A DNA stretch of 63,959 nucleotides, filler included, from an uncultured bacterium (GTDB taxonomy: Bacteria > B130-G9), in the NCBI GenBank assembly GCA_965372715.1. It is 4 parts of 4 records of this genome, joined end to end, with 100 filler letters (N's around TTAATTAATTAA, not from the genome) between each part and the next. Parts side by side here need not be neighbours in the genome. Positions count along the whole stretch, not along the records: positions 1 to 20,879 come from CBDVDH010000062.1; 3 more parts are not named here. One strand, given 5' to 3'. A program made the translations under genes and the position numbers. Below the pieces are notes generated by a model. That model was not told the DNA's origin and did no database searches. It saw only the letters and a program-made list of their open reading frames with translations. Below are positions 1,529 to 13,019 of this stretch, piece by piece (the first letter of the stretch is position 1; the number at the start of each line of letters is the position of its first letter).

Positions 1529-1735
1529 GTGAATAATGTATCGAAATCAGATCAAGGCGAGCTCCTTCAGGAGTTGTGCCGAAAGCACGGCCTTGAGCCA
1601 AAGGTCGTTGAAGAGCTCATCAAGATCGAGAAGCAGTGTCAACACATGGAGCGGAGGCTCGGCATCTCTGACGCATTGAAGCGGTGCATTCTCGACAGCC
1701 TGAAAACGCCAGAGCGGGTGTCTGATGAACGATAA
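1529..1735 (+). CDS. Small helical protein resembling the DndC C-terminal tail / small proteins of dnd loci
   Basis: LLQELCRKHGLEPKVVEELIKIEK...RRLGISDALKRCI; GGAG RBS 7 nt before GTG; first gene of the dnd-like operon. Confidence 0.55.
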   Translation: MNNVSKSDQGELLQELCRKHGLEPKVVEELIKIEKQCQHMERRLGISDALKRCILDSLKTPERVSDER

Positions 1736-2366
1736 CAAGAGCGTTTCAGAGCTTAAGGCCGAAGCCCTTGAAGCCATAGAGCTTCTAAGTGCAACTATCG
1801 ACGAGCTCGCGGAGATCGCGAATTCCATACCCGAAACAGACGCAAAGAGAGCCCAACTTAGAGAGATCTCTAGATCGATCCAGGAGTTGGAAAAGAGAAA
1901 CATCCCTGTGCCGGACGGATTGCGGCAACTCAGAACGTCAATCGCTTCTGAATTGGGGCCGGTGGATGAAGCGAAGGAAGCGATACGCGAAACGGCCAAA
2001 TGCCTGGCGGAGACGATGCGTCGCTTGGAAGGACTAGGCTTGACGAGCCGTATTAAACCTAAGCGCAGAAGTCGAAGGTCAAGCTCTCCCACCACGTCGA
2101 ACTCGACCTTACGAGAACTCATCATCGAGGCGCTTCGATCGCATGGTGGACGCGCGACCCGTGGGGAGGTGCTGGCCCGGATAGAAAGGCGACTCCGAGG
2201 TCAATTCACAGCTCGCGACCTCGAAACCTATTCAGGTCGTGACAAAGTCTGGTGGAATAGGGCCTCAGTCGAGCGCCAGAATATGGTTCGCGAGCGCATA
2301 TTAAAAAACGACTCGCCAATCGGGATATGGGAGCTTGCTGAAGGGGATGGTAATGCGGCTTCTTAG
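1725..2366 (+). CDS. Helical N-terminus plus C-terminal Mrr_N-like winged-helix protein
   Basis: C-terminus LRELIIEALRSHGGRATRGEVLARI...WWNRASVERQNMVRERIL...SPIGIWEL; no nuclease domain visible. Confidence 0.7.
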   Translation: MNDNKSVSELKAEALEAIELLSATIDELAEIANSIPETDAKRAQLREISRSIQELEKRNIPVPDGLRQLRTSIASELGPVDEAKEAIRETAKCLAETMRRLEGLGLTSRIKPKRRSRRSSSPTTSNSTLRELIIEALRSHGGRATRGEVLARIERRLRGQFTARDLETYSGRDKVWWNRASVERQNMVRERILKNDSPIGIWELAEGDGNAAS

Positions 2367-4368
2367 GCTTGCGATAGAGAATTATAAGTGCTTTCAAGAT
2401 CGTACAGAGATAAACTTCACGGCCGGGCGCGTTGAGCCGGGCAGGAACATCTTTCTGATCGGTGGGATGAACGGCACGGGGAAGACTGCGATTATGGAGG
2501 CGATCAACTTCTGCCTCTATGGTGAGAAGAAAGCCGTGATGCTCAAAGATGGGATGAATAAAGAACAGGAGAACAAACACAATGTCAGGTGCTCGATAGA
2601 GCTCAGCTTTGAAACAGATGAGGGTTCCGACGTGACTGTCAGGCGGAGTTGGACGGCGCATGCGCTCTTTCCGCCGCCGAGCGCCGACGAGCTTATTGAG
2701 GACCTCACCGTGGTTGTTGACGGGAACAGAACGTCAGGGATGAGTGAGGAGCGTTGGGCAGAGTATCGAGACAGTCTGATCCCCCAAACGGTCGCCCAAT
2801 TCTTCTTCTTTGATGGCGAGAAGATCCAGCAAATCGTGGCTGACAAGGACTCAAAGAAGACCTTGACCGAATCGATGGAAGCGGTCTTGGGCATTAGGAT
2901 AGTCCGGAAACTGATCGACGACCTCAGGAAAATCCAGATAACTGGAAAGAAGGCGAGGTGTGATACCTCAGAAAAAGATATAGATTGGCAGAAAAAGCAG
3001 CTTGAGGCTTTCATGGCCAAGCTCGCCAAGAAAAAAGAACTCGTGGAGAAGGCAAGGCACGACATGCGCGAGTTTGAGGCTGAGTTGGGGACCCTCGAGA
3101 AGAGCTTCTCCGAGAGGTTCTCGCCCGATCAGAAGGACGGGACCAAGCGCGACGAGCTGACGCGACAGGAGATGCGCCTGGAAAACCAGCTGAGCCAGAT
3201 CCATAAGCACCTCAGGGAGTTTGCCGAGCGAATATTGCCGTTATCGTTGCTCGCGACGCACTTGCCCGATTTGCGGAGACAGCTGGAGGCGGAACAGAAG
3301 GCTGTGGTTAGCGCAGCAGTTAAGGACGAGGCGGACGCACTTGCCGCTGCGATAGTTGAGGCAGCGGCATATCCCAACACGGTCTGTTGCCGTGAAAAGA
3401 TGTCCCAGTCGGCCAGGGAGGAGCTCCGCAATCGAGTGCTCGCGGTTATTCGCCACTTTCCCGAAGAACCGGCGCGGGCAGAAGAGCACCTGGAGCTGTT
3501 GCAGTTGTCGCCGACAGACGCGGCCCGGGTTCTAGACCGTATCAACGAGATTGAACGCAGCGACTCAGCCGGATTCAGCGCCCTTTTCAGGCACAAAGCC
3601 GAGCTTGCTTTCGAGCTCGAGAATGTCAAGGAGCAGGTCAAGAAGGCGTCTGTGGCCGATTCGGACAAAGAGGCGTTCGATAGACTTCAGTCGGAGATCA
3701 AGAGCTATTCGACTCAATTAGGGAAGAAGCGGGACGAGGAGAGCCGTTACATTGACGAATGCCGGGAGATAGAGAAAGAAATCGAAGAGCAGCAATGCAG
3801 CCTAGATAGGGCTTACAGAGAACTTTCTGTCACAAAGGAACACGATGCGTTCCTCAAACAGTGTCAAGGTCTCATCGATCTCTTCACCGAATACGTCGAT
3901 CTGCTGCGTGAAAGCAAGATACTAACGCTCCAGGAACGGACATTTGAGATGTACCGCAGGCTGGCAAGCAAGGGGGATCTAATAGAAAGCGTTCACATAG
4001 ACCCTGAATCCTATCGCGTTACCATCAAGAACCTTTCCGGACAGGAGGTGGCCAAGCATAATCTTTCTGCCGGAGAGAAAGAGGTATTTGCGATTTCGTT
4101 GCTTTGGGGATTGGCGCAGACTTCCGAGCTGGAGCTTCCCGTCGTGATCGACACACCCCTATCGAGGCTCGACAGCAAGCACAGGGATCGGATCGTGACC
4201 GATTACTTCCCGAACGCTGCCCTGCAAGTTGTTGTGCTTTCGACTGACACCGAGGTGGACCGACAACACTTCAGCAAGCTTGCGCCACACCTTCAGAACA
4301 GTATTCGTCTCCAATTCGACAAGACGCGCAAGCTCACGACCATCGAGGAAGGCTACTTCTGGGAGTAA
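2353..4368 (+). CDS. dndD: DndD-like SMC/ABC-family ATPase
   Basis: Walker A GGMNGTGKT, FFFFDGEKI, long coiled coil, signature LSAGEKE, Walker B VVIDTPLSRLD, VLSTDTE, C-terminal EEGYFW. Confidence 0.85.
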   Translation: MRLLRLAIENYKCFQDRTEINFTAGRVEPGRNIFLIGGMNGTGKTAIMEAINFCLYGEKKAVMLKDGMNKEQENKHNVRCSIELSFETDEGSDVTVRRSWTAHALFPPPSADELIEDLTVVVDGNRTSGMSEERWAEYRDSLIPQTVAQFFFFDGEKIQQIVADKDSKKTLTESMEAVLGIRIVRKLIDDLRKIQITGKKARCDTSEKDIDWQKKQLEAFMAKLAKKKELVEKARHDMREFEAELGTLEKSFSERFSPDQKDGTKRDELTRQEMRLENQLSQIHKHLREFAERILPLSLLATHLPDLRRQLEAEQKAVVSAAVKDEADALAAAIVEAAAYPNTVCCREKMSQSAREELRNRVLAVIRHFPEEPARAEEHLELLQLSPTDAARVLDRINEIERSDSAGFSALFRHKAELAFELENVKEQVKKASVADSDKEAFDRLQSEIKSYSTQLGKKRDEESRYIDECREIEKEIEEQQCSLDRAYRELSVTKEHDAFLKQCQGLIDLFTEYVDLLRESKILTLQERTFEMYRRLASKGDLIESVHIDPESYRVTIKNLSGQEVAKHNLSAGEKEVFAISLLWGLAQTSELELPVVIDTPLSRLDSKHRDRIVTDYFPNAALQVVVLSTDTEVDRQHFSKLAPHLQNSIRLQFDKTRKLTTIEEGYFWE

Positions 4369-4374
4369 TAGGGC

Positions 4375-5910
4375 ATGGCTGACCGTCTCTACACATCATC
4401 GGATGCCGCTAAGACACTGAGCGATCTTGGATACTTGACCGGACTTGAGTTTGTAGCTTTGGCGCGCCTTGCGTTGGCATACTCTATAAAGAAGGTCGGA
4501 GATACGGTCCAGCACAGCTCAGATTTTTCAGGCAAGGAGATCCGCAAGACCTTCTTTTTCGGCACCGATGAGAGTGTCCTGAGGAGCCTCGTTCGCGTAA
4601 TATACCGTGACGCCTTCGAGGACGACGACAGGTTCTTTTCCAGGCGTTCGGTCTGCAAGGACCACATAGATAACGGCCTGAAGCTGTTGGCGGATGTATT
4701 CGAGCAATGCGGGCGAAACCCAGATGTCTTCTTTCAGAAGCTCGCCGCGGAGATTCCGTCGCCCGCCGCCGGTCGGGCTTATGGGCCCATCCCGCATCTC
4801 GACATCGAGGTCGGCAAGGACATCAAGAACACGCCAGTCGTTCTTGAGATCAACAACACCTCGCGCCACTCGAACCCTCACGTTGCCATCATCGGTCAGT
4901 CCGGCTCAGGCAAAACCCAAATCCTGCTCAAGATTCTCGCCGACATTAGGAAGCAGTCGGATTTCCGGACTAACTTCATCTTGTTTGACTACTCGAAGGG
5001 GGACATTGCCTCCAACACCCAATTCATCGAGACGTCTCGTGCCACAGTCTATAATCCTGCGGCGAAGCCTCTTCCTTTGAACCCGTTTGTCCTCGACATA
5101 TATGACGAGAAGTCCATCATATGGTCTGCCGAAGCGAAGGCGGACTCATTCTCCTCGATCAGCGCCCACTTCGGCTTCGTCCAGAAGAGCAAGCTGGCCA
5201 AGTCTATAACAAGGGCCTATGAGCAGCGCGCCGATCAAGACTTACCTTATCCCGATTTTGGCGAGGTCCTTGAGATCGCACGGGCTATGTACAAAGAGGA
5301 TAAGGCCACCGACGACTCGCTTATCGAGACGTTAAGGCGTCTTTCAGACTTCTCTTTGTTCTGGGAACATGGGGATCAACAGCAGCTCATCTCATCCCTG
5401 TGGACGCAGACAATCGTTATTGATCTCAGCAAGCTTCAGGCGCTCAAGGAGCTGGTTGCCTACCTCGTCATCGAGCAGCTTTACAGGCAGATGTCGGGCC
5501 TGCCTGATAGTGAGACGCTCGATGATAGACGCCAGATAAGGACCGTCTTGGCGATTGATGAGGCACATAACTATCTACCCCAGAAGAACTCCCTTCTACA
5601 GACAATTGTTCGGGAAGGTCGCTCAAGGGGAGTCGCAGTCTTCTTTGCGTCGCAATCACCCAGCGACTATGAACAGGACGGTTTTGATTTCAAAGAGCAC
5701 CTGGAGTTCTCGCTGATCCTGCAATGCAAGGTGAAGTCAGCGTCTGCAGTTCAGAATCTGATCAGCTGCAGTCCGCAGGCTGCCAAGCAGTTGCGGGTGA
5801 ATCTTGCGCACTTGAACCTGTTTGAGGTCATCTCGAAGGCCATCGGCGAAGATAGGGATTACACGCGCTTCATGGCGATTCCGTTCTTTGAGGCGTCTAA
5901 GACGCCTTAA
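4375..5910 (+). CDS. DndE-like N-terminal domain fused to a HerA/FtsK-type (DUF87, DndH-like) P-loop ATPase
   Basis: N-terminus RLYTS..A..TL..L...TGL....LARLALAYSI...HIDNGL; C-terminus NPHVAIIGQSGSGKT, LAIDEAHNYL, REGRSRG...ASQSPSDY. Confidence 0.75.
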   Translation: MADRLYTSSDAAKTLSDLGYLTGLEFVALARLALAYSIKKVGDTVQHSSDFSGKEIRKTFFFGTDESVLRSLVRVIYRDAFEDDDRFFSRRSVCKDHIDNGLKLLADVFEQCGRNPDVFFQKLAAEIPSPAAGRAYGPIPHLDIEVGKDIKNTPVVLEINNTSRHSNPHVAIIGQSGSGKTQILLKILADIRKQSDFRTNFILFDYSKGDIASNTQFIETSRATVYNPAAKPLPLNPFVLDIYDEKSIIWSAEAKADSFSSISAHFGFVQKSKLAKSITRAYEQRADQDLPYPDFGEVLEIARAMYKEDKATDDSLIETLRRLSDFSLFWEHGDQQQLISSLWTQTIVIDLSKLQALKELVAYLVIEQLYRQMSGLPDSETLDDRRQIRTVLAIDEAHNYLPQKNSLLQTIVREGRSRGVAVFFASQSPSDYEQDGFDFKEHLEFSLILQCKVKSASAVQNLISCSPQAAKQLRVNLAHLNLFEVISKAIGEDRDYTRFMAIPFFEASKTP

Positions 5911-6045
5911 GTCACCCTTTCCCCTTTTCGCCCCGTTTCCCCATTGCGGAAACTACTCCTCGCAGCCCTTGATAGTTCATACGGTGGTTGAGTATGCTTC
6001 CGAAGACAATCCGCCCGACTACGAGGAGTCGGGCTACGTCGGTTT

Positions 6046-7287
6046 GTGGAGGTCAGATTGATACTCAAAGAGCCAATACTCGTCGGGCTAACGCAGCTTT
6101 CGGCCAATAAGCTCCGCTCGTTCTTGACGATGCTCGGGATTCTCATCGGCGTCGGCTCCGTCGTCGGCATCGTGTCAATCTCGGACGGCGCAAGAGAGAT
6201 GTTGCTCGCCGAGATGGACAAGTTTGGCGGGAGCAACTTGATGTGGGTCTCGCCTCCGCATCGGTGGGTGAGGCGCGACGGCAGATGGCAGAGGCGGGCC
6301 TATGACGCCTATTTGGACAACGACGACGTCAGGAGAATCGCCAAGTGCAGCGACCACATCGTGAGCGTCCTGCCGATGGTCCGCGTCGGGGGCAACGCGA
6401 CACACGAGATGAACACATCCAGCTGCACAATACTCGGGACGTTGCCGACTTATGCGGAGGCGATGGACTGGAAGCCCGAGCGAGGGCGATTCTTCTCAGA
6501 GAGAGACGAGGCGTCGTGGCGGAAGGTCTGCGTGATCGGCGACAAGGTCTATGAGGACCTGTTCCCGGACGAGGCGGACCCGGTTGGCGAGGATATCAGG
6601 CTGGCCGGTGTCCGATGCGTGGTCATCGGAGTGATGGAGCAAAAGAGCGTGTTTGGCAACGACTGGGGATACAACGTGTTTGTCCCTTCATCCACGGCCC
6701 AGCACAGAATGACAGGCTCCGAAAGGATCAACTACCTGCTGGTCAATGTTGACAACAGCCTGAACGTCTCAAAGGCCGAGCGCCGCGTCAAATCGCTCCT
6801 GAAGCGGACCAAGGACCACGGCGATGAATACCAAATCAGGACGGCCCAATCCGAAATCGAGAAAGTCGAAGAGGCGCTGTTCATCGCAAAACTGGTCACG
6901 GGCGGGATAGCGGCTATTTCGCTAATTGTAGGCGGCGTTGGGATCATGAACATAATGCTCGTCTCGGTCGCGGAGCGCACTCGTGAGATTGGCCTGCGCA
7001 AGGCCGTAGGCGCACGGAAGATGCACATATTCTTCCAGTTTTTGATCGAGGCGATAATCCTGTGTATTCTGGGATGCGCCGTTGGCATCGGCATCGGCTT
7101 CGCGCTCGGGCTTGGAATAGCCGCTATCATATCGAAGACCGCGGACATGGAGTTCATAAGCGTTGTGTCCGCGAAGGCGATCATAATGGCGGTCGCCTAC
7201 TCCGTCGGAATTGGCCTTGCGGCTGGAGTATTGCCAGCCGTCCGGGCCGCGCGGCTGAATCCCGTCGAGGCGCTTCGCTACGAGTAA
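6046..7287 (+). CDS. MacB/FtsX-family ABC transporter permease
   Basis: NKLRSFLTMLGILIGVGSVV, GGVGIMNIMLVSVAERTREIGLRKAVGA, AARLNPVEALRYE. Confidence 0.92.
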   Translation: MEVRLILKEPILVGLTQLSANKLRSFLTMLGILIGVGSVVGIVSISDGAREMLLAEMDKFGGSNLMWVSPPHRWVRRDGRWQRRAYDAYLDNDDVRRIAKCSDHIVSVLPMVRVGGNATHEMNTSSCTILGTLPTYAEAMDWKPERGRFFSERDEASWRKVCVIGDKVYEDLFPDEADPVGEDIRLAGVRCVVIGVMEQKSVFGNDWGYNVFVPSSTAQHRMTGSERINYLLVNVDNSLNVSKAERRVKSLLKRTKDHGDEYQIRTAQSEIEKVEEALFIAKLVTGGIAAISLIVGGVGIMNIMLVSVAERTREIGLRKAVGARKMHIFFQFLIEAIILCILGCAVGIGIGFALGLGIAAIISKTADMEFISVVSAKAIIMAVAYSVGIGLAAGVLPAVRAARLNPVEALRYE

Positions 7288-7308
7288 ATTGTCTTTCAGA
7301 AACGGAGC

Positions 7309-7381
7309 TGTAGGGGCAGGCCCCCGCGCCTGCCCTGTCCAATTGGAACCACCGAGGGCGGACACGGGGGTCCGCCCGTAC
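7309..7381. repeat. GTAG-type REP doublet (REPIN-like)
   Basis: tgtaggggcaggcccccgcgcctgccct...agggcggacacgggggtccgcccgtac; inverted relative at 51885-51958, further relative at 14578-14653. Confidence 0.75.
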
Positions 7382-7403
7382 GACCTGGCAATAGACCGAT
7401 AGG

Positions 7404-9395
7404 ATGACAGACCTGGCAAGGATTGGCGTCGATACTGGCGGCACTTTCACGGACATTATCCTGAGCCGGCGAGGCGGGTTCTCGATCAAAAAGGTTCCAT
7501 CGCGGCCCGACGCGCCAGAGCTCGCCATCGTTGACGGTCTCTCGGGTGTCATTGAGCGAGATGACTGCGGCACGATCGTGCACGGAACGACGATCGCAAC
7601 CAACGCGCTGCTATCCCGATCCGGTCAGAAGACCGCCCTTGTGACCACCGCGGGCTTTGAGGACATCCTCGAGATAGGCCGCCAGAACAGGCCGGAGCTC
7701 TACGATCTCTCCACACGAAAGCCCCTGCCGCTTGTTCCAAGAGAACTCGTCTTCGGCCTGAGTGAACGGACGCTCTATTCCGGAGAGGTTCTCGAGCCAC
7801 TCACCGACGCTGCGATAACCGAGCTCGTTCAGAACATCAGAACGTCCGGCGCGGAGTCGGTCGCCGTGTGCCTCCTGTTCTCGTTCGCCAACCCGCAGCA
7901 CGAAAGCGCGGTTCGACAGGCCATAGAAAAGCTCGGCCTGTTCGTCTCGGCTTCGTCCGACGTCCTGCCCGCTTACCGAGAATACGAACGGTGCAGCACG
8001 ACCGTCGTCAACGCATACGTCGCCCCCGCCATCACCCAGTATCTGGAGCGCCTCAACTCGGCGCTTGACCGCTGGCGGATACAGATAATGCAGTCCAATG
8101 GCGGGTCGCTCTCGGTGTCGGCGGCATCCAGAAGACCGGTCGCTACCATACTCTCAGGCCCCGCGGGGGGTGCAATCGCCGCCAAGAAACTCGCCGCGAA
8201 AGTGGGCGAGCAGAACGTCATATCATTCGACATGGGCGGCACATCGACCGACGTCTCGCTGATAGCAGGCGATCTGAGCTGGAGCGCCAAGACCACCATC
8301 TCGGGCTGCCCGATAGCGATTCCGGTCATCGACATCCACACGGTCGGCGCGGGCGGTGGCTCAATCGCATACCTCGACGCCGGCGGCGCTCTTCGCGCAG
8401 GACCCGAAAGCGCCGGCGCGGACCCGGGCCCGGCCTGCTACGGCAAGGGCCACGAGCCTACCGTGACGGACGCCAACGTCGTCCTCGGACGGCTCTGCCC
8501 AGAATGGTTCCTGGGCGGGGCCTTCAAGATACATCCCGACCGAGCGCGAGAAGCAATCGCCAAACTTGCTGGAGACATGAACATCTCGACGGAGGCCGCC
8601 GCCGAGGGGATCGTCCGTGTCGCAAACGCCACCATGCAGCGGGCCCTTTCGGTGGTCTCAGTTCAGCGCGGCTTCGACCCCCGCGAGTTCTCGATTGTCG
8701 CCTTCGGAGGCGCGGGGCCTGTCCACGCGTGCGACCTCTGCCGAGCGATTTCCGCCAGGTCCGTCATCGTGCCCAAACACCCCGGCATCCTCTCCGCGAT
8801 TGGGATGCTCGAGGCGGACATGGTTCGCGACTACAAGAAGAGCGTCCTGATGCCCGCGACCGCAGAGGCTTCCAAAGAACTCGAGGCGAAGTTCGCAGCG
8901 CTTGAGGCGCGGGCGGGTGATGACCTTCGGGAGGATGGGGTTCAGCGCGAAGCCATCCACTTCCAGCGGCGGGTTGAGATGCGCTACGTTGGCCAGTCTT
9001 ATGAGATCGACATCCCATTCTCAGAAAGCTATTTGGATACGTTCAACGAGACCTACTTGCAGGAATACGGCTACTTAGACAAGGAGAAGCCCACGGAGGT
9101 CGTCAACATCCGCGTCATGGCCGTCGTCCCCACCCAACCCGACACCGCCATGCTCTTCGGCGATGAACCCTGGCCCACCGGGAACCCCGTCCTCGGAACG
9201 CAGCGCCTCATCGAGGGCGGCAAGCGCCTCGACGCCGCGCTCTATCAGCGCGACCTGCTCAAACCGGGCGCTGAAGTCCGAGGCCCGGCCGTGATTGTCG
9301 AATACTCCGCCACGACCTACATCCCCTCCGACTTCTCCTGCAAAGTCGATGACCTCGGCAACCTGATTCTGACGACGGGCCCCCTTCTGAGCTGA
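7404..9395 (+). CDS. Hydantoinase/5-oxoprolinase A-type subunit
   Basis: GVDTGGTFTD, HGTTIATNALL, SGPAGG, DMGGTSTD, GAGGGSIA, SAGADPGPACYG. Confidence 0.93.
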   Translation: MTDLARIGVDTGGTFTDIILSRRGGFSIKKVPSRPDAPELAIVDGLSGVIERDDCGTIVHGTTIATNALLSRSGQKTALVTTAGFEDILEIGRQNRPELYDLSTRKPLPLVPRELVFGLSERTLYSGEVLEPLTDAAITELVQNIRTSGAESVAVCLLFSFANPQHESAVRQAIEKLGLFVSASSDVLPAYREYERCSTTVVNAYVAPAITQYLERLNSALDRWRIQIMQSNGGSLSVSAASRRPVATILSGPAGGAIAAKKLAAKVGEQNVISFDMGGTSTDVSLIAGDLSWSAKTTISGCPIAIPVIDIHTVGAGGGSIAYLDAGGALRAGPESAGADPGPACYGKGHEPTVTDANVVLGRLCPEWFLGGAFKIHPDRAREAIAKLAGDMNISTEAAAEGIVRVANATMQRALSVVSVQRGFDPREFSIVAFGGAGPVHACDLCRAISARSVIVPKHPGILSAIGMLEADMVRDYKKSVLMPATAEASKELEAKFAALEARAGDDLREDGVQREAIHFQRRVEMRYVGQSYEIDIPFSESYLDTFNETYLQEYGYLDKEKPTEVVNIRVMAVVPTQPDTAMLFGDEPWPTGNPVLGTQRLIEGGKRLDAALYQRDLLKPGAEVRGPAVIVEYSATTYIPSDFSCKVDDLGNLILTTGPLLS

Positions 9396-9407: not shown

Positions 9408-11317
<1,910 letters not shown>

Positions 11318-11669
11318 CTTTGCATCCCTCGAATGAAAATGGGACCTCCGGCTGCACTATGCCAACCACCGTTGCGGTCGGATGCCTTTGGCCCCGGATG
11401 TATTTGCAGTGATGTTGATGCGGTGATCGGCATAGCACTGTGATATTCGCATAGAGGTCCAGACATTGTCAACCAGACTCGAGCGTGGATTACGAGGCCA
11501 AGAGCGTCACGTAATACGCCATGACGTGCGCTGGCAGGTCACGCTGCCGCTGGCTCCTCTATCCCGTCTCTCGAAGCAACTTCTTTACACCGGGTCTTTT
11601 GGGTTCAGGAACCGGCGTTTGACTCGAAGAGCAGCAAGGCGCAGTGTTACAATAAGGAGGAGCCAGGAG

Positions 11670-13019
11670 ATGAGCAGGTTTTTTGAATGCCTGATTCCTG
11701 CGATGGTCGCATTTGTCACAGCCAGTTTAGCGCCGGCACAGACGATAACTACGTTTCCATTTGGCCCGCCGCCTTCCTGGGTCCATCCGAACTCACGATT
11801 GAGGGTCGGGCCCGAGGGAGATATTTGGTTTGTATTAGACGAGCCGCTGCGCCTAATGCGGATCCGTCAAGGTCAGCTTGAATGCGTGTATGAGACGGCC
11901 ATCTATGACTATTGGGGTATTGACGTAACAGTCGCGCCGGATGGGACGATCTACATCGACAACTTTCAATACGAGTTCAGCCTCGAGGCCGGCATAACAG
12001 GAACTGGCGTTGTCGAGCCTTCATTCCAGTGGAGGCGGATCTCATTCAAGGGCACGATTGATGCGGACGGGCGTATGTTTTGCGTCTCGGGTCCATGGAA
12101 CTCCCAGGACCCCAGGTGGTACAACATATATGAGCTGTACCGAAACGCCTCTTACCAATGCCGCATGGGGCTGAGTTACATCGGCTCCATTGTAGCGGTT
12201 TCGGCAGAGGAGTTCTGGATCGTCAGCTCGTATAGTAAGTACCTGCCTGCGTCTCTGTTGACGCTCAACCTGGACACGGGCCAAGTCGAGGCAAGCCATA
12301 CAATTGTTGGTGCGATTGCCGCAGTGCATCTCTTCGCCAAGGATTCTGAAGGCCGGTTATGGCTGGCGGCTGAGAACATCGCGTACTTCGACGGAGAGTC
12401 GTTCGTGGTGTTCGCTATACCCCCCGAGGGCACACGCGGAGAATACCGCAGCGTGAGTCTCGCCGCCGATGGGGCCGTCTGGGCGGTCCTTCTCCTTTCC
12501 AGAATGCCCCCCTTCGAGTGGGGTGTAGTCCGATTTAGTGGCGACGAAAGGCGGACTTTCACGGCTGAAGACGGTCTCCTCGCCAATGGGATACGGTGGC
12601 CGCCGTTGATAGACTACGACGGAAATGTCTGGGTATTTCACTACCAAGGCATCAGCATGATCGCCGACGGGGGTTGGCCGCCGATGCGGCTCAGTCTGGC
12701 GAAGCTGGAGACGCCGGAGGGCATCGCGGTTGAGGCGCAGGTGATAAACAATGGGCCGGTCGTTGGGGTTGACGTGTATGTGGCCCTCGAGCTGAATGGG
12801 CAGCTCTTATTCTGGCCGAACTGGCAGCCGGCGCCGTCTCCCGTCCACGTCAACCTCAAGCCCGGGCACAACCAGACCGCAACCATCATCTCCGCGCCTC
12901 GCTCAAACATCCCGCCTGGCACCTACACGTTCTACGCCTGCATGACGGGCCGTAACACACAAAAGCTCATCGGCCCCCTCGACCGCAAATTCGAGTCCCT
13001 GACAGTGGAGGTCGATTGA
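11670..13019 (+). CDS. Secreted beta-propeller-like protein with a C-terminal 'VDVYVA' domain
   Basis: Signal peptide ending ASLAPA-Q; repeated (A/D)xDGxxW turns and TFTAEDGL; AAGGAGG/AGGAG upstream of the ATG. Confidence 0.65.
   Translation: MSRFFECLIPAMVAFVTASLAPAQTITTFPFGPPPSWVHPNSRLRVGPEGDIWFVLDEPLRLMRIRQGQLECVYETAIYDYWGIDVTVAPDGTIYIDNFQYEFSLEAGITGTGVVEPSFQWRRISFKGTIDADGRMFCVSGPWNSQDPRWYNIYELYRNASYQCRMGLSYIGSIVAVSAEEFWIVSSYSKYLPASLLTLNLDTGQVEASHTIVGAIAAVHLFAKDSEGRLWLAAENIAYFDGESFVVFAIPPEGTRGEYRSVSLAADGAVWAVLLLSRMPPFEWGVVRFSGDERRTFTAEDGLLANGIRWPPLIDYDGNVWVFHYQGISMIADGGWPPMRLSLAKLETPEGIAVEAQVINNGPVVGVDVYVALELNGQLLFWPNWQPAPSPVHVNLKPGHNQTATIISAPRSNIPPGTYTFYACMTGRNTQKLIGPLDRKFESLTVEVD

Follow-up and report, generated by a model that had tools for sequence, protein, structure and literature searches.

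The subject of this report is a four-gene cassette from an uncultured bacterium (GTDB lineage Bacteria; B130-G9), located at positions 1529-5910 of a stretch of 63,959 nucleotides from its genome (GenBank assembly GCA_965372715.1). This whole 64-kb stretch, composed of four parts joined end to end, is called the window below. The cassette consists of four intact genes on the same strand, which overlap or abut one another and encode proteins of 68, 213, 677, and 511 amino acids (aa): a gene for a small protein, sp (1529-1735, +), a gene for an adaptor-reader protein with a C-terminal winged helix (1725-2366, +), a gene for an ATP-binding cassette (ABC) ATPase of the DndD clade (2335-4368, +), and a gene in which DndE is fused to a HerA/FtsK ATPase (4375-5910, +). 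The first three genes overlap, and the fourth begins 6 nucleotides (nt) past the end of the third. An initial annotation, made from the sequence alone, had described these open reading frames (ORFs) as a Dnd-like operon that lacks the sulfur-transfer core and is a candidate new system for defence or DNA scanning; all four ORFs are intact and arranged as it stated. We compared the cassette with 80 homologous loci (numbered L), which encode fusion relatives of 45-66% identity and come from genomes (numbered G) of many phyla.

The 677-aa protein scores 375.9 bits against the NCBIfam DndD model TIGR03185 (equivalog cut-off 245.85), and PADLOC assigns it to DndD (1.4e-131) just ahead of PbeC (3.9e-124). 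The columns of its Walker A, Q-loop, signature, Walker B, and H-loop motifs are invariant in 31 sequences, including that of the window, so that the annotated DndD-type structural maintenance of chromosomes (SMC) ATPase with intact motifs is upheld. Both the alignment and the PADLOC models place its probable start at residue 7, that is, at position 2353, and its nearest solved relatives by sequence are the heads of Rad50. The DndD gene adjoins the fusion gene in all 80 loci, one of which (L023) has a truncated dndD. On TIGR03185, the fusion-linked DndDs reach 364-399 bits and the canonical DndD of genome G005 reaches 678 bits, so that the former make up a distinct subgroup.

The 511-aa fusion protein begins with a DndE domain (residues 4-107, nt 4384-4695; Pfam DndE, 34.8 bits against 25), followed by a HerA/FtsK ATPase of the DptH/DndH type (residues 141-506, nt 4795-5892), which exceeds the cut-offs for both DUF87/HerA (38.3 bits against 23.2) and FtsK_SpoIIIE (25.2 against 24). 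On the NCBIfam equivalog model TIGR03184, the DndE domain reaches 27.3 bits against a cut-off of 71.85. Residues 141-456 match positions ~1300-1665 of the PADLOC DndH model (2.9e-36), and when a profile of the fusion was compared with solved structures, it matched DptH in its C-terminal domain (7es4; 6.3e-32, residues 142-506) as well as an archaeal DndE (7x4e; 3.9e-4). G174, G177, G179-K180-T181, D395-E396, and R413/R416 are invariant in 18 sequences; they represent the Walker A motif, the DEAH box, and conserved arginines, among which we read a putative arginine finger. With both domains above their Pfam cut-offs and the motif columns invariant, the annotated fusion of a DndE-like domain to a HerA/FtsK ATPase holds. 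Its relatives are numerous, amounting to 735 clusters of about 508 aa at E <= 1e-5.

The 68-aa protein belongs to the Pfam family Sp-DndD (PF20306; 40.1 bits against a gathering cut-off of 27.2, residues 8-50), and it also aligns with the last ~55 positions of the DndC models of both PADLOC and NCBIfam. A profile built from 40 homologues aligns to residues 428-483 of real DndC, and the small protein and the DndC tail have in common a Leu/Cys-rich and Arg-Arg-x-Gly-x-Tyr pattern. In other words, the small protein can be read as the C-terminal module of DndC, apparently freed as a separate gene. Its mean column identity in the homologue alignment is 56%, and its gene lies upstream of the DndD-fusion pair in 62 of the 64 loci having at least 3 kb of flank. 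When the profile was searched against 1.84 billion representatives, 224 relatives were found at E <= 0.001, and the best 150 of these are nearly all shorter than 100 aa and free-standing. A complex prediction for the small protein with DndD scored 0.50 (best control, 0.00), where scores of 0.60 or less were given by 7 of 80 solved complexes and by both of the two mismatched pairs, of 110, that passed. The prediction runs share at least 80% of their contacts with a partner predicted local distance difference test (pLDDT) score of at least 67, and these values hint that the small protein may pair with DndD. One stop-to-stop frame of L061 (~7079-7561) contains both the small protein and the beginning of an adaptor. 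It is a natural fusion or else a sequencing artefact; a genuine fusion would speak for joint action of the two.

The AlphaFold2 model of the 213-aa protein, made with 27 sequences, has a mean pLDDT of 91.1 and contains an N-terminal module of three long helices (residues 7-103, nt 1743-2033), a basic, disordered linker (residues 104-125, nt 2034-2099), and a winged helix (residues 126-204, nt 2100-2336). The initial annotation had described this protein as ending in an Mrr_N-like winged helix; the winged helix is present in the model, but the match to Mrr_N (PF14338) stays below threshold, at 19.9 bits against a cut-off of 29.5 (E = 8e-4, residues 133-206), and the fold is generic. The adaptor homologue of locus L009 reaches 25.1 bits on the same family. 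Foldseek returned generic winged-helix DNA binders only, with E values of at least 0.17 and therefore none at E <= 0.001, and a search of the adaptor profile against solved structures gave coiled-coil noise only, with no solved relative by sequence.

A census of the window and the 80 loci found 80 copies of the adaptor in 57 loci. Across the 80 loci there are zero to four copies per locus, and the adaptor is present in 43 of the 51 loci having both flanks. Across 43 sequences, the motif Q44, P63, L66, K70, and L73 of the N-terminal module is nearly invariant, and the C-terminal domains vary. The 80 copies carry (i) an Mrr_N-like winged helix in 47 cases, including that of the window; (ii) a RAMA domain in 16, which is above the Pfam cut-off in three of the four proteins having RAMA as their top match; (iii) an unassigned domain in eight, in copies that are always located just 3' of the fusion gene; and (iv) rarer kinds in nine. 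As their Pfam entries are named, Mrr_N and RAMA are tied to the sensing of restriction and modification. We read the adaptor as a modular family that would plug interchangeable DNA-reading domains into a common machine. The Mrr_N reader proposed in the initial annotation is one of several such domains. ScpA, a kleisin, is also built from a helical N-terminal domain, a linker, and a winged helix, and a kleisin-like adaptor was considered; it was set aside as the main reading in favour of a reader because the C-terminal domain is swapped for RAMA or others and because the gene is duplicated in tandem. The core of the system comprises the DndD-clade ABC ATPase, the DndE::HerA/FtsK fusion, and the small protein of ~60 aa, and the adaptor is accessory.

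No dndC gene is adjacent to the pair in any of the 80 loci. DndC above the curated cut-off occurs in four of the 80 genomes, always on a contig other than that of the pair, and a few more genomes have partial or weak matches. In G005 and G034, the neighbour of DndC on that other contig is a second dndD, distinct from the one in the pair, and in G040, G070, and G076, the DndC match is again on a contig other than the pair's. When the genuine 548-aa DndC of G005 was used as the query, it matched the 80 loci solely through its residues ~392-486 and solely onto the small gene (30 loci). For the window's own genome the search covered the 64-kb window, in which this query found no match (best tblastn E = 1.9), and no gene resembling 3'-phosphoadenosine 5'-phosphosulfate reductase is seen between cinA and the MacB-type permease, as had been annotated. 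Neither the nearest genome, G001 (96% complete), which also has no cassette, nor G002, the genome of the closest homologous locus, has DndC. Because dndC is never adjacent to the pair and DndC is rare elsewhere in these genomes, we conclude that the family does not depend on DndC. The initial annotation had considered that homologous loci might carry dndC upstream of the small gene; none of the 80 does, so that at the level of the family this is not a split or decayed Dnd system.

Of the 51 loci whose upstream flank reaches 8 kb or more, 41 have the cassette at the 3' end of a longer operon, in which the first genes encode a Type I-like methylase and its specificity subunit; this arrangement is called the long form below. 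By profile search, the HsdM-like protein was found in 39 and HsdS in 41 of these 51 loci. The methylase, of ~920 aa, consists of an HSDR_N_2 nuclease-like domain followed by an N6_Mtase domain (PADLOC Type I methyltransferase, 1.6e-146), and its PD-(D/E)xK motif (D119, E136, K138) is kept in at least 93% of 31 sequences; the specificity subunit, of ~455 aa, is of Type I. The genes of the long form overlap from hsdM through to the fusion gene; in L047 and L015, the overlaps between the methylase gene and dndD measure 4 nt. Cultured isolates also carry long-form operons, among them Paracoccus sulfuroxidans (L082), Aequorivita nionensis (L058), and Nitrosomonas sp. Nm51 (L073). HsdR was not found in the long-form loci, helicase domains are present in none of 10 large same-strand ORFs downstream, and no downstream gene cluster is common to more than five loci. 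Because HsdM and HsdS lie upstream and HsdR is missing, the usual form of the system looks like a restriction-modification (R-M) system in which the motor has been replaced by DndD and DndE-HerA. The cassette as mere cargo of Type I R-M loci was considered and rejected, since no HsdR follows the cassette and the genes overlap from hsdM to the fusion. The initial annotation had missed the nuclease-bearing methylase and the specificity subunit to which most relatives are coupled. It had also supposed that the scanning machine may be reused independently of sulfur chemistry; independence from DndC is borne out.

Long-form operons often carry a passenger gene, placed after the specificity gene and before the small gene, namely RhuM/PDC-S05, a YhcG/DUF1016 nuclease (PDC-S02), or DarT-DarG (for example, at L047 6125-7168, L033 6103-7212, and L052 5469-7163), and the long-form operon is a landing site for other defence genes. 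Beside other loci lie a prokaryotic Argonaute (pAgo), a Schlafen/AlbA protein, and a Type II R-M system.

The window represents a different, short form. Profiles built from the HsdM-like and HsdS proteins of the long form find nothing in its 64 kb, and five short-form genomes have no orthologue of the nuclease-bearing HsdM used as the query. In a quick maximum-likelihood tree of the fusion (58 rows, 57 of them distinct; unrooted and with a long-branch warning), the window groups with L010, L011, L012, and L018. HsdM and HsdS are missing in four of these five rows, and the flank of L011 (4.5 kb) is too short to score. This group is split from a crown clade of 53 rows with 100% support in the Shimodaira-Hasegawa-like approximate likelihood ratio test (SH-aLRT); 39 of the crown rows have HsdM/S, 10 are unscored, and four are without them. 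The named members of the basal group come from the Hydrogenedentota, Ignavibacteriota, and Armatimonadota, each with intact genes. By identity, the closest relative is L009 (66% for the fusion, 56-66% across the proteins); it too has the short layout, and its fusion gene is intact. Short-form loci lie directly beside housekeeping genes, such as those for MurJ, an aldolase, sugar dehydratases, and a topoisomerase. The window belongs to a deep methylase-less branch, and the short form, judged by gene content and tree position, is a recurrent, intact arrangement rather than a one-off truncation. It should be mentioned that the fusion proteins of L078 (Bacteroidota) and L079 (Cloacimonadota) are identical, which indicates either a very recent transfer or a binning mix-up.

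The cassette of the window lies between cinA (84-587) and a gene for a MacB-type permease (6046-7287). In G001, the nearest relative, the same cinA-macB slot is without the cassette, and the flanks have 88-96% nucleotide identity; the window operon was probably acquired horizontally. A direct repeat of 169 nt (503-671 and 1354-1522; repeat search, family D1, 86% identity) has as its first copy the 3' end of cinA with the sequence downstream, and its second copy, which stops 7 nt short of the small gene, marks the upstream edge of the cassette. The repeat brackets a toxin-antitoxin-like pair formed by a DUF4258 gene (726-1088) and an overlapping gene of 74 aa (1085-1309). This pair (726-1309) is not part of the cassette system and looks like a small cassette inserted with target duplication. 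In G001, a pair encoding a nucleotidyltransferase (NTP_transf_2) and a HepT-like RNase (L002 2111-2419 and 2385-2756) replaces the DUF4258 pair, and visual inspection shows another copy of the cinA 3' end after it. The slot is a variable hotspot, at which different toxin-antitoxin cassettes seem to replace one another. Immediately 5' of the small gene and extending into its start, a consensus scan gave two overlapping, weak, putative sigma-70-like promoters (1478-1537, +; 9/12 matches each, at the level of pattern). A short repeat occurs at ~1-60, 5915-5960, and 7309-7381 and has dozens of matches across the contigs of G001, resembling intergenic repeats of the repetitive extragenic palindromic (REP) type; its copy at 5915-5960 lies directly past the stop codon of the fusion gene. 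Farther downstream, 3.5 kb from the cassette, a gene on the opposite strand (9408-11225, -) encodes a 605-aa protein with an N6_N4_Mtase domain and an endonuclease domain like Mrr_cat/NA-iREase1. It is kept in G001 at 96% nucleotide identity, where many copies of 66-78% identity occur on at least seven other contigs, and it appears by this comparison to be a member of an expanded family of methylase and endonuclease-like genes in that genome. It adjoins a 517-aa ORF (11466-13019, +) without any Pfam or PADLOC match.

Parts of this system have been met before. Rakesh, Aravind and Krishnan (2024, PMC10853773) mention, in the part of their article available to us, the DndE-HerA/FtsK fusion beside a DndD-related ATPase, describe DndD-DndE as an obligate scanning core, and report that DndC is missing from about 30% of the taxa with this core. 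The pairing of DndD with DndE-HerA is therefore already known, filed under phosphorothioate systems, and since the small protein is also covered by Pfam Sp-DndD, the "candidate new system" of the initial annotation is not wholly new. The accessible text of that article contains neither HsdM nor Mrr, and "RAMA" only inside other words. A full-text literature search found no paper naming Sp-DndD, and literature listings gave no description of a DndD plus HerA architecture with RAMA, HsdM, and HsdS. Reportedly, the fusion and Sp-DndD were likely first described by Krishnan et al. (NAR 2020), the work to which the 2024 article refers for the fusion. As far as we have seen, the following features are new: the family as a whole does without DndC, the tail of DndC is detached as a separate protein, the adaptor is modular, the methylase partner bears a nuclease domain and comes without HsdR, and a short form stands alone. 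Part of this may already be described in Krishnan et al. 2020 and in the supplements of both papers.

Among known systems, the closest is the clade-3 HerA/FtsK fusion with DndD, which shares with the present family both core genes, a HerA/FtsK domain akin to that of DndH, and a small protein covered by Sp-DndD; the present family differs in that DndC is adjacent in none of the 80 loci and absent from 76 of the 80 genomes, and in its adaptors and usual methylase partners. With canonical DndABCDE it shares a DndD above the equivalog cut-off, a DndE domain, and a small protein matching the C-terminal module of DndC, but it has no DndC body and no sulfur-transfer enzyme, and its DndE is fused to a motor ATPase. 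The fusion ATPase with its C-terminal tail is most like the C-terminal domain of DptH/DndH from the DndFGH/DptFGH systems, whereas the ~1300 N-terminal residues of DndH (helicase-like, target recognition domain, inactive methylase, and restriction endonuclease) have no counterpart in the four proteins, and neither DndF nor DndG is among the PADLOC matches listed for them (for DndD, the best 25 of 97). Like Type I R-M, the long form has an HsdM-like N6-adenine methylase, HsdS, a PD-(D/E)xK domain of the HsdR type, and ATP-driven motors; unlike it, HsdR was not found, the nuclease sits on the methylase, DndD and DndE-HerA take the place of the superfamily 2 (SF2) motor, and the window form is without any Hsd gene.

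The MADS system (mad1-mad8) follows a similar logic, in that the methylase mad2 and the specificity protein mad5 go with several ATPases (PMC13662399, as far as its text was available). The fusion ATPase matches the distantly related ATPase mad8 (1.8e-21), and the long-form HsdM and HsdS match mad2 and mad5. However, MADS has no DndD or DndE (in the part of the preprint available, bioRxiv 10.1101/2023.03.30.534895, DndD occurs 0 times), and it has an OLD-like MAD3-MAD4 nuclease and a MAD6-8 set, which its authors' detection model makes mandatory and which is not seen here; among the PADLOC matches listed for the four proteins (for DndD, again the best 25 of 97), there is mad8 and a weak mad3 but no mad6 or mad7. 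PbeABCD/CxC-ABC likewise combines a DndD-like ABC ATPase with a DndE-like protein and a small protein, and the DndD of the window matches PbeC as given above. In contrast to PbeABCD, the ATPase scores higher on DndD models, no PbeA (HKD nuclease-SF2 helicase) lies between cinA and MacB, and the small protein is well conserved, whereas PbeB is described as rapidly evolving and mostly disordered.

On balance, we think it fairly probable that the cassette is an intact four-gene, short and methylase-less form of a widespread DndC-independent system, probably one of defence. For its mode of action and subunit contacts we offer, with less confidence than for this overall statement, the following scheme. 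The winged helix of the adaptor would select DNA, possibly by its modification state; the three-helix module, together with the small protein, would tether the adaptor to a DndD dimer; and DndD with a DndE-HerA ring would scan or pump the selected DNA at the expense of ATP. In the long form, the methylase with its specificity subunit would mark self DNA by N6-methyladenine (m6A), the fused PD-(D/E)xK nuclease would cut non-self DNA, and the DndD/DndE-HerA module would stand in for the absent HsdR motor. In the short form, damage to the invader might come from translocation, from nicking of the DndE type, or from a host nuclease, and the cassette would make no phosphorothioate. Archaeal DndE nicks DNA non-specifically in vitro, according to the part of He et al. 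(2022, PMC9239217) available to us.

Several points weigh against this reading. The form found in the window has no recognisable nuclease or methylase and hence no obvious route to harm or means of telling self from non-self, and a role in defence or DNA scanning, although plausible, is drawn entirely from genomic context. In principle, HsdM and HsdS could accompany the cassette without a functional link, simply because defence islands bring such genes together; the lack of HsdR and the 4-nt gene overlaps speak against this. The Mrr_N match of the adaptor is below the Pfam cut-off and its fold matches are generic winged helices, and the predicted contact between the small protein and DndD is weak. 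Since the GC content of the cassette (0.535) is near the window mean (0.565; cinA, 0.635), base composition is a weak argument for horizontal acquisition. The terminal branches leading to the window and to L018 are long (1.42 and 1.77 changes per column), which may reflect relaxed selection. Finally, most of the genomes are metagenome bins, in which the absence of DndC from any single bin means little, although the pattern over 80 genomes does not share this weakness.

The long branches also enter the argument that the cassette is a relic, inert or slowly decaying, left after a long form lost its nuclease-methylase and specificity genes. Such a relic would explain a short form without the methylase and without the only recognisable nuclease of the long form; the truncated dndD of L023 fits it, and five loci of the crown clade (L017, L045, L050, L077, and L086) that are also without HsdM/S show that loss is possible. 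Yet all four ORFs of the window are intact with every ATPase motif kept, L009 shares the layout at 56-66% protein identity with an intact fusion gene, the methylase-less state is common to a basal group from several phyla with intact genes, and the duplicated and varied adaptor genes of L009 and L010 point to ongoing selection; we therefore regard a relic as unlikely. A restriction arm whose modification arm acts in trans, for example through the methylase at 9408-11225, seems to us quite unlikely. Relatives of the cassette normally travel with a methylase, and a 605-aa one with an endonuclease-like domain is only 3.5 kb away, but it lies on the opposite strand with two unrelated genes between, differs in family from the HsdM-like partner of the long form, and belongs to the genomic backbone as a multi-copy family kept at 96% in G001. 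As G001 carries this methylase without the cassette, it was rejected as a partner.

That the cassette works on the host chromosome as a housekeeping machine for repair or segregation, by analogy with archaeal HerA-Mre11-Rad50-NurA, is very improbable in our judgement. Rad50 heads are the nearest solved relatives of DndD, HerA/FtsK motors act in repair and segregation (PMC10853773, available part), and several short-form loci are flanked by housekeeping genes; against this, the nearest relative does without the cassette at 88-96% flank identity, the spread over phyla does not follow phylogeny (as in the identical fusions of L078 and L079), in most loci a methylase, a specificity subunit, and known defence genes accompany the cassette, and the conserved neighbour clusters include no Mre11- or NurA-like partner. 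We see hardly any chance that this is an ordinary Dnd system in split form, with dndC (and iscS or dndA) elsewhere in the genome and the cassette making phosphorothioate with it. In its favour, the search of the window's own genome covered the 64-kb window, four of the 80 genomes bearing the pair do have DndC above the cut-off, the small protein resembles the DndC tail, and the available text of PMC10853773 files the fusion under "PT-modification systems". Nevertheless, the other 76 genomes lack DndC above the cut-off, G001 (96% complete) and G002 have no DndC at all, the DndC of G005 and G034 stands beside a second dndD of its own on another contig, and a separate gene for the DndC tail is in keeping with a system that has given up the body of DndC.

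Beyond the short, methylase-less form of a DndC-independent system that we favour, a bolder and tentative possibility, which we hold with some doubt, is that the family is an uncharacterised class of ATP-dependent immunity in which DndD and the DndE-HerA ring replace the Type I motor and the short form is self-sufficient. The long form would then be a new type of R-M, with the nuclease on the methylase, a motor derived from Dnd, and swappable reader adaptors; the short form, with neither methylase nor nuclease, would read DNA through its adaptor, perhaps recognising foreign modifications as Type IV enzymes do, and would disable invaders through translocation or through nicking like that of DndE.

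These findings bear on how such genomes are described. Annotation pipelines call these genes DndD and DndE, and the PADLOC models scanned return DndD/PbeC and DndH; because of these labels, genomes having only the cassette are at risk of being counted as phosphorothioate-modifying, and our results suggest that the majority do not make this modification. A short form that protects its host by itself would represent immunity without an obvious nuclease or self-marking, and would raise the question of how the host is spared. According to an earlier proposal, the DndD-DndE pair is a general core for scanning DNA, to which different chemistries can be recruited, and the present family offers a clean test of this idea, as it keeps the core, drops the sulfur enzyme save for its docking tail, adds a ring translocase, and mostly pairs with a nuclease-bearing methylase. 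If the long form restricts DNA, the Type I-like motor would be replaceable by an SMC-like ATPase together with a HerA ring.

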